Source: Eledone cirrhosa (taxonomy: Eukaryota). From it: 64,000 nucleotides of DNA. Each line of letters begins with the position of its first letter. Positions within the stretch are counted from its first letter, which is position 1. The notes under the pieces are model-generated. The model had not been told where the DNA came from, ran no database searches, and saw nothing but the letters and a program-made list of their open reading frames with translations. This document shows, in pieces, positions 2,743 to 48,000 of the stretch. Both the position numbers and the translations under genes were made by a program. The stretch covers positions 321,160,001-321,224,000 of the forward strand of contig OZ024740.1 of the NCBI GenBank assembly GCA_964016885.1. Reading direction: 5' to 3'.

Positions 2743-3134
2743 TATATTTGAAAAAAAGGAAAAGAATGACTTCACTTGTAGTTCTAAATAATTTGATTTA
2801 ATTTTATAATATTATAATATTATGAGTTGGTAGATCTAGTAAGTTCTTTGTTAACTTTGGTGGGAAGAATTTTAAAGATTTCTGGTTAACTTTCTTGGAG
2901 AACTTTCTTCAAACTGAGATCTCAGTTTGACAATCGCCACCGATGAATGCAAGAAAGTTAACCAGAAATCTTTAAAATTCCTCCCACCGAAGGTAACAAA
3001 GAACTTACTAGATCTACCAACTCATAATATTATAATATAAAATTAAATCAAATTATTTAGAACTACAAGTAAAGTCCTTCTTTTCCTTTTTTCAAATATA
3101 CCTAACTGTATCAAGCATCTCACACATTTTCCAA
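2743..3134 (+). mobile_element. Fold-back element family B (PLE-like inverted pLTR plus tail) in (TA)n
   Basis: ~155-bp inverted arms (2743-2897 / 2950-3100) and a one-sided 34-nt tail; same family as 47002-47179. Confidence 0.7.
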
Positions 3135-3249
3135 TATATATGTATATATATATATATATATATATATATATTAGAAAGATTGGGACTCAGAGTTACACCT
3201 TCAATGGGTAATTTGTATAGATATGAGGTAACTCTATCAATACATGTAC

Positions 3250-42000: not shown

Positions 42001-45000
42001 GCCTTTCCGCAGCTCGTTTCTTTGACTGAGTTGCAGTCCTGGGTCAAGAAGAGACCGAGACTGGGTGACTGGCATCTGGAATGTTGCCAGGCACTCACTA
42101 CCCTCTACCAGGCGGGCAATGCGGTCAGTGGAACTTCCACTCTCGAGTTCTATCGAGGATTAGTGGTGGGCAAGTGCGACGACGCATTCGGAGAGGCTCT
42201 GGGAGTCAACGAAGTCGAACTAACCAGTCTGTACCGGAGGACTTTCGAGCCGGGGACGATGGATAATTTCCAAAAATCCCTCGCTTGGCAGTGCTACGGG
42301 GGGGCACTGCCGGTTCGAGATAAACTCTACAGGCACGGAAGTGCTGTCAGACGGACCTGCCCGAGATGCGCGCAGAGCGACGAAACCGTTCTGCACGCAC
42401 TCGTCCAGTGTCCGTGCATTACTGACTTGTGGAGTTATGTTGAACAGCTGTTGTCGTGTGTAGAACGGATCCGGCTATCGGCCGAGTCCATAGTGAAGAT
42501 CGACCCGTCGCCTTCTTTTGGCCAAGAAGGGCAGGCAATTTTCCTCTGTCTGGTGGCAGTAGCGAAAGAGGTTGTATGGTGGACGAGGTTGAAAGGACTG
42601 AAGACAGACACTTTTCTCTTCGGCCAATCCCTCATCAACTTTTTCAAGTTTCACTTGGAAAGGAAGGTGAGGGTGGAGAGAGAAGCGCTGCCCCCCAGTA
42701 CATTTGCTGAAAGGTGGGTGATTGTGGCGAGAATGGCCCGTGTGAGTGGGCCTACTCTGGTCATGCGGCTGTAGGTAGGTAAATTTGAAGAGGAGAGGGG
42801 TGCCCTTCCAGGGTGCTCTCGAAGCGTCGGGTCGTTCAGGACTGGTGGGGTACCTGAGCGAACCCTAGGTGGTCATCCCCCCATTGGGGAATTTTTTCTT
42901 GTTGTAATTTTATTGTTACTTTATTGTTACTTTGTTATTGTTACTTTGTTATTGTTATTCATATTGTTTACTCGATTTTTCTGTAAAACCCCACTGTCCC
43001 AGTCTTTTGTATTGTCCCCTATATGTCGGCCCTTGTGGCCAATAAATGAAATCATTATTATTATTATTATTATTATTTCCATTATCATTTTTATTGCGCA
43101 TCATTAATGCTTTACCGAGCACAGCTCTGTGCGCCTAGGGTATTAACAGTGTTATTTGATATGCTGTGGTAAAGAGAACGTAAAGACAGTAGGCAACTTG
43201 TAATATCAAGATATGTGATATGACTGATATGACTGAGAAGATATATGATATAACTTACAATGGTATCAGCATATATTATATGACTGAGAAGATATATTAT
43301 ATAACTTACAATGGTATCAGCGTATATGATATGACTGAGAAAATATATGTTATAACTTACAATGATATTAGTATATATGATATAACTTACAATGGTATCA
43401 GCATATGTGATAAGTTCGTCTTCAGTGATATCCTTTTCTGTGTTGTTCTGTTTCAGCAGGTGACGGAGAAATTTCTGAAAATATCAACAAAAATAAACAA
43501 TTGTTAGCAACAATAACAACACGACGACAAAAGCCAAAACAACAACACCAACAGCAGCAGCAGCAGCAGTACCAGTAATAACTACAACAGCAGCAATGTC
43601 AACACCAAACACAACAACAACAATCACAACAGCAAAAACAACAACAGCAGCACAAGTAAGAACAATAGCTACAGCAACAACAACACCAAACACAACAACA
43701 GCGACAACAATTTTGGGATTCTATTAATGCTATTGTTATTGTTGTTGTTGATATGTAATAATAATTGTTTCTACTTTAGGCACAAGGCCAGCAATTATCC
43801 CAGTGCATTACTGGTACTTTATTTTATCGACCTCGTAAGGATGAAAGGCAAAGTCAACCTCGGCGGGATTTGAACTCAGATCGTAAAGGGACGTAACTAT
43901 GCTGGAATATGTAATAATAATGAAGTATCTACATTAGTTGTTATTTCTATTGAAGTACGATATAAACTTTATTATTTTGGATTGGCAGTATCGGTAGAGG
44001 GTCGGACACCATGCTTTTCAACATAGTTACGTCCCTTTACGATCTGAGTTCAAATCCCACCGAGGTTAACTTTGCCTTTCATCCTTACGGGGTCGATAAA
44101 ATAAAGTACCAGTAATCCACTGGGATAATTGCTGGCCTTATGCCAAAAGTAGAAACAATTATTTATACGTTTATTATATTAATTTACCAGATTTATGTGA
44201 AATGTAGGCCTCCAATGTTAGTGCTAATCCCAGTCCAGATGTGAAATGTAGGCCTCCAATGTTAGTGCTAGTCCCAGTCCAGATGTGAAATGTAGGCCTC
44301 CAATGTTAGTGCTAATCCCAGTCCAGATGTGAAATGTAGGCCTCCAAAGTTAGTGCTAGTCCCAGTCCAGATGTGAAATGTTGGTTTCCAAAATTAGTGC
44401 TAGTCCCAGTCCAGATGTGAAATGTTGGTTTCCAAAATTAGTGCTAGTCCCAGTCCAGATGTGAAATGTAGGCCTCCAAAGTTAGTGCTAGTCCCAGTCC
44501 AGATGTGAAATGTAGGCCTCCAAAGTTAGTGCTAGTCCCAGTCCAGATGTGAAATGTTGGTTTCCAAAATTAGTGCTAGTCCCAGTCCAGATGTGAAATG
44601 TAGGCTTCCAAAGTTAGTGCTAGTCCCAGTCCAGATGTGAAATGTTGGTTTCCAAAGTTAGTGCTAGTCCCAGTCCAGATGTGAAATGTTGGTTTCCAAA
44701 ATTAGTGCTAGTCCCAGTCCAGATGTGAAATGTAGGCTTTCAAAGTTAGTACTAGTCCCAGTTCAGATGTGAAATGTAGGTCTCTAAAGTTAGTACTCGT
44801 CCCAGCCCAGATGTCAAATGTAGGCTTCCAAAATTAGTGCTAGTTCCAATACAGATGTGAAACGTAGGCCTCCAAAGTTATGCTAGTTCCAGTCCAGATG
44901 TGAAATATAGGCCAGTGCAAAGCTGGTAATATGGCCGGACCAGATGTGAAATATAAAACCCCAAAGCTAGTGATAGTTCCAGACTAGATCTGAACTATAG

Positions 45001-48000
45001 GCCTGTGCAATGTTGGTACTAGGTCTAGATCATGTGAAATGTAAACCTCCAGACCTGGTAATAGGCCCAGTCCAGATATTTAAATTACCCTCACTTTAAA
45101 CCTCTATGCAACCAGTCATAAATACATTTGATTTATTTATGGGTTACAGGGCTATATACATGGACATGTATTGTATATGATGTAATAAGAAGAGTTGAAA
45201 TTAACGCATGCAAGATTTCACAGCTCTAACATCACTCCTTTTCAATCAGCCTATGAAGTTTTCAGCCCATTCTCGTATTTACATGGAGCAGAATACAACA
45301 AACGAATTAGAATTGTTGTTGCTGCTGTTGTTGTTGTTGTTGTTGAAGATGATGATGATGATCTCAACTAAAGTATTGATTATATCTTGTCTGTTATGTC
45401 TGTTATATATTTTCAATGACCACAGTCTGATATATATGGGTGGTTTCTTGGTCCCACAATAAAACATTGTATATAGGTGATAGATTCATTGCCATCAGAC
45501 TGTGGTCATTGAAAATATATAACTGACATAACAGACAAGATATAATCAATACTTTAGTTGAGAATATCATCATCATCATCATCATCATCAACAGCAACAA
45601 CAATAACATCATCATCATCATCGTTTAACGTCCATCTTCCACGCTAGCATGGGTTAGACGGTTTTGTTCCATTTGATGCGGGATTGGTTGGGAGACCGTG
45701 TCTCGCTCGTGCGGCAGTGTCTCTGGCTGGATGCCCTTCCTAACACCAACCACTTTTACAGTGTGGACTGGGAGCCTTTTTACCATGTCTCCTAGACGAC
45801 CACTTTACAGTGTATATACGAGGTGTGTCAGAAAAGTTCCAGGACTGATGCCACAAAAGATTTATTTCAAACCCAAACCTCACACTAAGAGTTTTCTCCT
45901 TCAAAGTAATCCCCCTGGAGTATGTAACTGTAATCTTAGCTCTCTGCAGCGATCAAACTTTTTTCTTCATAATTTTATATACATGTCCTCTGTTTCAGGT
46001 CGTCAAGCAATGAGCACAGAGCAACGAACTAACTTGAAGTTTCTGGTACGGCTGGGGAAAACTCCGTCAGAAGCACTGGGATTGCTGCAGCTAGTGTATG
46101 GAGATGAGACGATGTCACGCTCACATGTTTTTGAGTGGTGCAAGATGACCGCAGGAGCGGAAGGCTCTCAACAACCAGGACTGAGGTCAACGTTGAGCGC
46201 GTCAGGCAGATGGTACGTAGCGATCGTCGGCTGACTGTTCGACTGATGGCAAATGAGCTGGGCATGAATCGGGACAGCGTCTGAAAGATTCTCACTGAAG
46301 ATTTGGACATGCGGAAAGTCTACGCGAAGATGGTGACAAAACTGCTGAACGATAACTAGAAGGGTCGACGCATGCAAGTGTGCCAGGACATCCTCGAGCG
46401 TCTTGAAACCGAACCAGACTTGCTAGGGACAGTCATCACCGGTGATGAGTCATGAATCTTCGAGTACGACCCGGAGGAGACCCGTTTTGAAGACGTGGAC
46501 GACATCAAAAAGGCCGTGACGACAGAACTGCGGAGGATCCCGGAAGAATCCTTCCAGGAGTGCATGCAAGCGTGGCAGAAAAGGATGGAAAAGTGCACTA
46601 GACACCAGGGGGATTACTTTGAAGGAGAACACTCTTAGTGTGAAGTTTGGGTTTGAAATAAATCTTTTGTCCTGGAACGTTTCTGACACACCCCGTATAT
46701 ATATATATATATATATATATATATATATAACGAAGGAAATGTGGTAAGGAACCAGGTGGACCATAACGCACCAAAGTACTCAATACTTGAGGTAGTAGAG
46801 TGGGTAATAGGAACCAGTAAGACCCCGACAGCTGAGCTCAAGCCGTTTCGACGGCTAATTCTGGACTCATTCAGTCCAGAATTAGCCGTCGAAACGGCTT
46901 GAGCTCAGCTGTCGGCGTCTTACTGGTTCCTATATATATATATATATATATATATATATATATATATATATATATATATATATATATATTATATATATAT
47001 ATTGGAAAATGTGTGAGATCCTTGGTAGAGTTAAGTATATTTGAAAAAAAGGAAAAGAATGACTTCACTTGTAGTGTTAAAAAATTTATGATTTAATGTT
47101 ATAATATAATATTATAACATTAAATCATAAATATTTTAACACTACAAGTGAAGTCATTCTTTTCCTTTTTTCAAATATATATATATATATATATTTCTCC
47201 TCCTGTTCCGTGCTAACCACCATCCTAAACCTTGTTTTTAGTAACCACACAGCTCCTTTCGTTTCATAACTTTTGTATATATATATATGTATATATATAT
47301 ATGTATATATATATATGTATATATATATATGTATATATATATATGTATATATATATATGTATATATATACAAATATAACATTAAATATGTTTGAATTATG
47401 TGCTTCTCAATAAATTAGCTCAATAGACAATATTAAGTCAAAAGTAGAAGTACATAGCGAAAGAAAGAATCATATATCCAGAGATGACACAGTATATTGT
47501 ACATATACTAAATACATATTTCAGAGAAAAACATGTAGTCAAGATGGAATCAAAAGTCACTCTACGGCGCCATTTCGTTAACTGTAAATTGTGATTTAAA
47601 ACCGCTCTATGTGAACGGATATCTTGAGTATATGTTCTTCTCTCTAATATGTATTTAGTATATATATATACAATATACTGTGTCTTCTTTGGATATATGG
47701 TTCTTTCTCCCCCCCCCCCCTCTCTCTCTCTATATATATATATACATATATCTTCTACTTTTGACTATATATATATATATATATATATATGTAGTAATAA
47801 TTGTTTCTACTTTTGGCACAAGGCCAGTAATTACCCAATACATTACTGGTACTTTATTTTATCGACCCCGTAAGGATGAAAGGCAAAGTTAACCTCGGCG
47901 GGATTTGAACTCAGATTGGCAAGGGCCGTAACTCTATGCGTCAAAGCATCGTGTCCGACCCTCTACCGATACTGCCAATCCACCGCAATAATAATAATAT

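Follow-up and report, generated by a model that had tools for sequence, protein, structure and literature searches.

Microsatellite-embedded fold-back elements of the octopod Eledone cirrhosa as probable 3'-end insertion scars of Penelope-like elements

Penelope-like elements (PLEs) that bear an endonuclease leave a recognizable insertion pattern, which consists of a truncated 3' end, an inverted partner, a one-sided tail and a hammerhead ribozyme (Craig 2021, PMC8557442), and the same pattern was described in earlier work (Arkhipova 2013, PMC3846280). Minimal PLE hammerheads have been found on opposite strands 100-700 bp apart, together with a variant core in which U3 pairs with A8 (Cervera and de la Pena 2014, PMC4209133). 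In the Hydra clade of PLEs, nearly all families target (TA)n and all carry hammerheads near the 3' end; one of them, Hydra-1_Obim, comes from Octopus bimaculoides (Craig 2021, PMC8557442). The protein of the lizard element Poseidon_Ac cuts and extends both strands and prefers AT-rich DNA; it uses two internal start sites whose spacing equals the tail, and ribozyme cleavage is not required (Frangieh 2024, PMC11167929). Here, 13 fold-back elements are described from 64,000 nt of the genome of Eledone cirrhosa (GenBank assembly GCA_964016885.1, contig OZ024740.1, positions 321,160,001 to 321,224,000 of the forward strand), a stretch of AT-rich, animal-type DNA that is called the window below and is numbered from its first letter. 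The elements had been pointed out in an earlier note that was made from the sequence alone.

The 13 hairpins are best explained as 3'-end insertion scars of several TA-targeting PLE families that were folded back at insertion, a reading to which we give a probability of roughly 0.78. A Penelope-like origin had been proposed in the earlier note, and the one-sided tail, the inverted truncated copy and the hammerheads do fit the published PLE insertion pattern. The fold-back architecture as such is already published for PLEs, and the elements likely resemble a known kind of genomic debris, which is very abundant, and not ribozyme RNAs that move on their own.

Comparison of the window with itself recovered all 13 inverted repeats, at starts that lie within a few bases of those given previously. 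Their arms are 31-390 bp long at 72-100% identity, and the elements span 100-961 bp each and 4,728 bp in sum. BLAST within the window sorts them into eight groups, in agreement with the earlier count of at least seven families: family A (2743 and 47002), family B (24290, 33133, 46729 and, weakly, 20601), family C (29070 and 47385) and the singletons 7498, 27527, 30038, 30422 and 31566. A one-sided extension, or tail, of 36-99 nt is present in all of them and is certain in 12; that of 31566 (36 nt, no sibling) is only probable. Six tails measure 36-42 nt, the probable one included, and seven measure 65-99 nt. The layout of microsatellite, one-sided tail and arms that had been claimed for every element thus stands, apart from this uncertain tail and from the left end of 20601, the weakest member, which is the exception among 26 ends that otherwise all abut some microsatellite. 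That the ends adjoin (TA)n, a check proposed with the original description, was borne out at 23 of 26 ends, where (TA)3 or longer lies within 22 nt (7.7% of background positions). Two corrections of anatomy emerged: the fold centres of 2743, 27527 and 30422 fall within what had appeared to be spacers, and the right arm of 47385 extends to about 47766. The elements had been described as lacking an open reading frame (ORF), and stop-free frames of at least 48 aa within them indeed gave no Pfam match. Because the arms differ from each other (72-99% in most) and the families are present in independent sequencing runs of several organisms, an assembly artefact was ruled out. The elements, with one related unfolded copy, are as follows.

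2748..3134, plus strand: element 2743, family A; palindrome near 2920 where the arms join; tail of 39 nt at 3096-3134; degenerate hammerhead candidate only.
7498..7695, minus strand: element 7498, singleton; 68-nt tail with bulged hairpin; Hydra-like hammerhead, 7631 to 7594; spacer assigned to the tail arm.
7845..7993, minus strand: solo unfolded copy ending at (TA)n; U3-A8 hammerhead 7988 to 7906; 10-nt palindromic helix III.
20605..20704, plus strand: element 20601, weakly family B (about 70% over 56-67 nt); 3' half of a hammerhead; 36-nt tail; left end not at a microsatellite.
24291..24468, plus strand: element 24290, family B; 3' half of a hammerhead; 73-nt tail with bulged hairpin.
27527..28487, minus strand: element 27527, young (arms 99%); fold centre at a TA run near 27997; tail arm shortened by a deletion of 113 nt; hammerheads 27713 to 27665 (minus) and 28393 to 28441 (plus); 92-nt tail with bulged hairpin.
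29047..30003, minus strand: element 29070, family C; 79-nt spacer belonging to the tail-less arm; 99-nt tail; hammerheads with a long loop II at 29726 to 29862 (plus) and, weaker, 29422 to 29278 (minus).
30039..30268, minus strand: element 30038, old (72%); U3-A8 hammerhead 30171 to 30142; 42-nt tail.
30425..30783, plus strand: element 30422; centre at 30594; hammerhead variant of U3-A8/GCAA type that is whole in the tail-less arm (30571 to 30542) and has lost its 5' half by deletion in the tail arm; 36-nt tail.
31570..31967, plus strand: element 31566, young (176-bp arms, one mismatch); hammerheads 31784 to 31812 (plus) and 31717 to 31689 (minus) of Hydra-like form; probable 36-nt tail at 31932-31967.
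33133..33322, minus strand: element 33133, family B; 3' half of a hammerhead; 76-nt tail; 4-nt spacer belonging to the tail-less arm, judged against 46729.
46730..46931, minus strand: element 46729, family B; 3' half of a hammerhead; 79-nt tail with bulged hairpin.
47003..47174, minus strand: element 47002, family A, short; tail of 38 nt; hammerhead absent; fold at a natural, AT-rich palindrome that 2743 has too.
47371..47766, minus strand: element 47385, family C; 3' half of a hammerhead; tail of about 65 nt; a microsatellite interrupts the right arm.

Other inverted structures occur in the window as well. A further fold-back at 45300-45626 has 132-bp arms at 87% identity, outer ends that enter (ATC)/(AAC) repeats and not TA, and no valid hammerhead core. 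Older inverted pairs without TA flanks lie at 49088-49416 and 15879-16096; the latter and a pair at 43760-44163 are made of an abundant repeat that resembles a short interspersed element (SINE). The family B-like elements 20601 and 24290 are separated by an interrupted (TA)n array of 3.5 kb (20708-24243).

Hammerhead cores were sought with three descriptors. The strict one found two cores in the window, both within 27527 and hence in 1 of the 13 elements (null 0.06 +/- 0.24, 100 shuffles). A PLE-type descriptor matched 3 of 13 (null 0.014, maximum 2 in 1000) and a relaxed one matched 6 of 13, namely 7498, 27527, 29070, 30038, 30422 and 31566 (null 0.09, maximum 1 in 500 shuffles), both nulls being optimistic because these descriptors were tuned after the elements had been inspected. 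The relaxed, post hoc search returns the same number of complete or variant hammerheads, six, as the earlier note had reported. Rfam hammerhead models gave none among 150 of 287 matches listed, nor among the matches listed in further Rfam scans; the matches listed for the elements are sub-threshold microRNA hairpins only. All six full cores are of type I, four with a C3-G8 pair and two with U3-A8. As a control, cores with a mismatch at this position were sought across the window: C3-A8 gave no match and U3-G8 gave one, in an (ATG)n run. In five elements, namely 47385 and the four of family B, the 3' half is all that remains of the hammerhead; the degenerate candidate of 2743 fails the descriptor, and 47002 has none. 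Full and half hammerheads all read outward to the element end, which lies 90-231 nt away (10 elements), and four elements hold cores of opposite polarity. In folding predictions, 11 of 12 helix III segments pair with themselves, with energies of -5 to -32 kcal/mol, the twelfth having been mis-windowed.

Outside the elements, the relaxed descriptor matches twice. The match at 4107 is AT-rich and likely due to chance, and that at 7988 belongs to a real-looking solo copy. This insert (7845-7993, minus strand) combines a U3-A8 core with a 7-bp helix II and a perfect 10-nt palindromic helix III, lies in host-gene sense and is unburied; judged from its sequence, it is the best candidate for self-cleavage in the window. 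A degenerate hammerhead copy similar to that of 7498 (79% over 39 nt) sits between microsatellites at 1796-1875 on the plus strand and begins a few bases before the core.

When whole elements are folded computationally, the probability that the core is unpaired falls to 0.001 or less in 27527, 31566 and 29070, and the predicted uninterrupted helices run from 10 to 176 bp. In a transcript through a fold-back, the antisense arm comes first. Because these folds bury the cores, inserted copies are predicted to form double-stranded RNA and not working ribozymes. This bears on the idea that the fold-back itself is mobile as a self-cleaving, possibly circular, rod-like RNA akin to retrozymes; whether the elements are independently mobile RNAs had been left undecided in the earlier note. 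Its high copy number and lack of an ORF would suit such an RNA, as would the six complete cores and the four elements that hold cores of both polarities. That idea is nonetheless very unlikely. Siblings differ in their fold point, five elements keep only half a core and one has none, and a single transcript would carry one sense core, which is predicted to be paired. The non-LTR (long terminal repeat) retrozymes of animals (Cervera 2020, PMC7229834; bioRxiv 10.64898/2026.07.22.740005) do share with the fold-backs a non-coding nature, a type-I hammerhead, a relation to PLEs and a high copy number. However, they are direct tandem repeats of 150-450 bp with a core in each unit and a circular RNA, whereas the fold-backs are single inverted pairs with buried or half cores, and no direct tandem units of the fold-back elements were found in the window.

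The formation of the hairpin at insertion is indicated by the way siblings vary. Within families A, B and C, the copies in the window have the same outer ends and the same tail but different fold points. Public data (three contig sets and one set of restriction-site-associated DNA (RAD) reads, mapped onto 27528-30003) contain distinct fold-back joints, at least six in the 27527 family and at least two in family C, within the 15 joints (of 155) and 12 inserts (of 108) that are listed; opposite-strand joints were excluded, since the inverted arms of the reference generate them. Because sibling copies differ in this way, the hairpin is likely not a fixed unit and was probably formed when each copy inserted. 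The same variation speaks against the view that these are miniature inverted-repeat transposable elements (MITEs) or foldback DNA transposons mobilized by a TA-targeting Tc1/mariner transposase. Inverted repeats, TA flanks and the lack of an ORF would suit such elements, and mariner remnants do occur in the window. Nevertheless, this view has hardly any probability left. The first 14 nt of the two ends agree at just 3-8 of 14 positions in 12 of the 13 elements, and those of 31566 agree at 14 of 14 only if its probable tail is omitted. Symmetric, fixed terminal repeats of uniform length are not found among the 13; arm lengths vary within families while hammerhead orientation is fixed, and one-sided tails and variable junctions contradict a transposase origin. 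For contrast, a mariner with an internal deletion was used, which borders 46729 on the left (45819-46695) and has TA flanks and symmetric terminal repeats; the element ends are unlike its terminal repeat.

Read depth shows how unevenly the elements are represented. It is given here as summed contig depth in run X1, which is not a true copy number and makes any ratio to unique flank rough. For the 27527 family, it reaches 7.0e5 in the tail and 1.3e6 and 0.86e6 in the outer arms, compared with 3.4-7.5e3 in the inner part and about 8.6 in unique flank, or some 10^5 copy-equivalents at the 3' end and 400-870 inside. The family thus appears to reach roughly 10^5 copies, piled at the 3' end, in line with the high copy number supposed earlier. 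Family C has a depth of 1.7-4.5e3 in its outer bins and 113-229 at the junction (about 400-500 versus 13-27 copy-equivalents). The earlier claim of TA targeting gains from the reads: 5,101 RAD reads pass from the tail-less end into (TA)n. The 27527 family occurs in organisms A and B and is nearly absent from organism C, and family C occurs in organisms A and C and is nearly absent from organism B. In the commonest reads, the sequence of helix II departs from that of the window copy, but its pairing, as we read it, is kept or improved. In two joints (28504>27618 and 28504>27545), the end of one 27527-family copy is connected through (TA)n to the end of another, which implies that these copies accumulate in the same microsatellites.

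Taken together, these features follow the insertion unit of endonuclease-bearing PLEs. All 13 elements comprise an adjacent inverted truncated copy, with junctions that differ among siblings; all have a one-sided tail, only probable in 31566, and seven of the tails exceed the published 30-40 nt; type-I hammerheads run in sense toward the 3' end, as full cores in 6 of 13 and half cores in five; and copies are 3'-biased and 5'-truncated in the depth profiles of 27527 and family C, an effect partly inflated by subfamily divergence. Published PLE units likewise show 5' truncation, an adjacent inverted truncated copy, a one-sided tail, junction palindromes, opposite-strand hammerhead pairs 100-700 bp apart and the U3-A8 variant. 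They differ in that the window keeps extreme 3' ends only and that target-site duplications are unreadable in microsatellites.

For the long-tailed elements and 31566, membership in the Hydra clade is likely, as far as short sequence motifs can indicate. The (TA)n target is shared by Hydra, Naiad and Neptune and is not diagnostic alone. Helix II of 31566 and 7498 has a U-U or C-U pair at its base, preceding GAA, as do, by eye, about 16 rows of File S2 of Craig 2021, and helices III and I of 7498 are nearly those of Hydra-2_Amil and Hydra-2_Ajap in the same file, the other elements being less alike. The features that resemble Hydra-clade PLEs (Craig 2021, PMC8557442) are the (TA)n target and, compared by eye, a short hammerhead of canonical type situated roughly 100-200 nt from the 3' end, the pyrimidine pair at the helix II base, a similar helix III and a bulged 3' hairpin, which appears in 2-3 of 6 printed consensi. 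Unlike these PLEs, the window elements have no attached ORF, tails of up to 99 nt, U3-A8 cores (absent from the File S2 table) and, in one family, apparently about 10^5 copies, and comparison by eye gave no match to the 3' end of Hydra-1_Obim. The Naiad PLEs of Octopus (Craig 2021) resemble the window elements in their (TA)n target, in an inverted copy with a tail and in 'half-core' motifs. However, Naiads have no canonical hammerheads, whereas six window elements contain full cores (a comparison that applies outside families A and B), and the available 3' ends of Naiads from Obim and Ovul did not match the elements by eye. Four short motifs from the window and a fifth from the reads are absent from the available supplement of Craig 2021, in which line breaks may hide matches, and two exact-pattern scans of metagenome contigs returned 0 loci.

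How PLEs form an inverted copy with a tail is still called 'undefined' in Craig 2021 (PMC8557442), and the junctions in the window may be informative. In the scheme proposed here, the endonuclease of the element would first nick both strands within a (TA)n run, as happens in vitro for the lizard PLE. Reverse transcription would then begin at two sites close to the RNA's 3' end, one for each nicked strand, such that the gap between the sites becomes the tail; the start sites are those demonstrated for the lizard element, and their use one per strand is our inference. Both cDNAs would halt early, often in or just before the hammerhead, and would be joined head to head via short homology or a local palindrome; the variable junctions are observed, and their cause is presumed. 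The product would read microsatellite, tail, arm, inverted arm, microsatellite, and the hammerhead, which belongs to that 3' end, would be inserted with it and is predicted to lie hidden within the hairpin once the copy is transcribed. Given a PLE origin, we consider this two-cDNA step slightly better than an even bet. Like Poseidon_Ac, the elements would combine an AT-rich target, extension of both strands, two start sites that bracket the tail and an AC-rich start site. The ORF of Poseidon_Ac starts inside its hammerhead, whereas no frame stays open from core to end in the full-core elements.

A consequence of two separate cDNAs is that either arm may extend further in the 5' direction, and both cases are observed. 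In 29070, contigs of other copies traverse 29533-29774 (at least four pieces among 24 of 10,091 listed), and for this reason its 79-nt spacer is read as an upstream stretch that goes with the tail-less arm. In 33133, too, the spacer (4 nt) goes with the tail-less arm, whereas in 7498 and 47385 it goes with the tail arm. A longer tail-less arm was also considered for 30422 and rejected, this element being symmetric with a later deletion. One joint in the reads (27562>28354; 78 reads, 2 starts) fuses a 35-nt stretch of tail directly to 134 nt from the tail-less arm. By our reading, the fold point lies in the hammerhead or at most about 40 nt upstream in 10 of the 13 elements, if the degenerate motif of 2743 is counted, a clustering that may partly be coincidence given such short truncations. 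In an alternative route to the same product, a single cDNA (or else an antisense template) would bend back at a local palindrome and serve as its own template. Such self-priming was proposed for rotifer Penelopes, from palindromes of this kind (Arkhipova 2013, PMC3846280), and it would suit the fold of 47002 at the natural palindrome, rich in AT, that it shares with 2743, the palindromic centres of 2743, 27527 and 30422, and the folding of the B copies within helix II. However, a copy of the tail-bearing cDNA cannot exceed that cDNA inward, yet the tail-less arm is the longer one in 29070 and 33133, and self-priming alone does not account for a second arm that stops one tail-length short. It therefore fits 47002, 2743, 27527 and 30422 and fails for 29070 and 33133 unless later deletions are invoked, which do occur; as a general explanation, we regard it as unlikely. 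Counting across tens of thousands of young junctions would discriminate between double priming and self-priming.

The tail itself provides a second line of comparison. A bulged hairpin (RCTC, inner stem, loop, inner stem, NN, GAGY) is found in the last 100 nt of 5 of the 13 elements, which represent four families (7498, 24290, 46729, 27527 and 29070), and ends 37-63 nt from the element end; the null has a mean of 0.03 and a maximum of 1 in 2000 for this descriptor, which was defined post hoc and which has eight further matches in the window, two of them within the fold-backs. By eye, a bulged hairpin is likewise seen in Hydra-2_Amil and Hydra-2_Ajap, about 27 nt from the ends of their consensi; Hydra-1_Crog has one that contains a single mismatch, 45 nt from its end. 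The inner stems vary in sequence while pairing is maintained. In addition, 9 of the 13 tails, from 5 of 8 families, have CACA within their last 16 nt, compared with a background of 6%, and none of the 13 tail-less ends does. Literature searches, including a term check of the available text of Craig 2021, found no description of the tail hairpin or of a two-cDNA model in sources outside subscription papers and Repbase. The shared hairpin is a concrete candidate, on sequence grounds, for a protein-binding or start signal.

Several observations weigh against an origin from PLE insertion, or against parts of the scheme. The match to Hydra was made by eye on short motifs, and the seven tails of 65-99 nt are longer than the published 30-40 nt. 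No copy is joined to reverse transcriptase (RT) or GIY-YIG sequence. Among 187 frames searched with Pfam (150 and 37, chosen to exclude those below 48 aa, those of low complexity and most frames in large arrays and in regions of long interspersed elements (LINEs)), no GIY-YIG domain was found, and RT occurred solely in two LINE-type elements; besides these, Pfam recognized an EF-hand exon and pieces of mariner, and it gave weak matches of C2H2, chromo-like and DNA-mimic type. A motif scan of the window (RWK, DKT, a CxCX5C linker, no CCHH) gave nothing credible, and the 67-aa frame that lies farthest upstream in 29070 had 18 candidate matches, none at E <= 1, which is weak evidence. The 5' half of the core lies outside the long helix in 7498 (unpaired probability 0.59) and in 30422 (0.85), although the 3' halves are paired. 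Later deletions at the hairpin tip, of which 27527 and 30422 carry examples, could mimic asymmetric spacers, and single tails fold no better than shuffled ones (z from -1.7 to +0.8). Finally, the inward fall in depth exaggerates truncation, as a diverged version of the dominant 27527 subfamily goes on upstream, with 4,454 loose ends at 27728 that are, by eye, still similar to the reference.

Two further points against full-length PLE templates concern 27527, in which at least 395 non-coding nt lie upstream of the core, compared with about 50-180 nt from stop codon to core in five Hydra consensi (by eye), and whose family is flat at about 400-870 copy-equivalents over the inner 400 nt, as a discrete short template would be. 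It is a tentative possibility that some templates, those of 27527 and family B, were SINE-like non-coding passenger RNAs of about 150-600 nt that used the same PLE machinery through a Hydra-type protein. Such passengers would refine and not replace the explanation by PLE insertion, as the fold-back would still be made at insertion. All four B copies fold within helix II, in keeping with a short template, and non-autonomous Chlamys elements and animal retrozymes are published precedents. On the other hand, two contigs extend at least 12 nt past the centre of 27527 (loose ends at 28002), family C contigs extend 60-169 nt beyond the spacer, no tandem units are found in the window, and long 3' untranslated regions exist in PLEs, with that of Naiad_Ovul reaching about 1.2 kb past the stop by eye. 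A more far-reaching proposal, and a rather improbable one, is that octopods host SINE-like non-coding passengers of Hydra-clade proteins that are recognized via a tail hairpin conserved from corals to cephalopods and are double-primed, and that each of about 10^5 insertions puts a ready-made, perfect hairpin of 50-400 bp into introns, as a main source of repeat-directed adenosine-to-inosine (A-to-I) editing in this lineage. If true, the insertion of a passenger would be the single-step equivalent of inverted Alu pairs.

The surrounding sequence places the elements in a gene. An EF-hand exon at 32859-33011 was recognized by Pfam, and its best match is a calbindin-32-like protein of Octopus vulgaris at 78% identity.

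3952..58914, minus strand: host gene, calbindin-32-like, with eight exons at 58849, 43388, 36305, 34951, 34719, 33555, 32859 and 3952.

Twelve of the 13 fold-backs are intronic in the long isoform of this gene, and 2743 sits beyond the last coding exon. At 32856-32860 (minus strand), a splice donor overlaps the stop codon at the end of the exon, such that read-through ends the protein, while splicing leads to a last exon of 41 aa at 3952-4074 (minus strand), 29 kb away, which matches isoform X3 of O. vulgaris calbindin. The window also contains a near-complete LINE of L1/Tx1 type with endonuclease, RT and zf-RVT (37456-42774, plus strand) and a broken LINE (11952-19637, minus strand), which retains RT and a zinc/endonuclease-like part at the C terminus and is interrupted by other repeats over several kb. 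Minisatellites lie at 10527-10896 (46-bp unit, eight copies 100% identical), 44195-45004 (44 bp) and 50958-58152 (43 bp, 7 kb).

An annotation of O. vulgaris lists 31 recently active Penelope-like families and 65 MITE families, without fold-back anatomy in its available text (PMC13282606), and its repeat library may already include the families described here. What the window adds is, first, the putative assignment of such elements to Hydra-like PLEs in an octopod at apparently very high copy number and, second, a tail hairpin shared across phyla together with junctions that favour two separately primed cDNAs. If the elements are PLE scars, then 7% of the window (4,728 of 64,000 bp) is PLE debris that resembles MITEs, and if the depth ratio holds, Hydra-like elements would make up a large and under-counted share of an octopod genome. 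Eledone belongs to a group with widespread repeat-directed RNA editing (Albertin 2022). The predicted intronic helices of up to 176 bp in the long isoform of calbindin may thus be of interest in this animal, as hairpins of this kind could be subject to editing.

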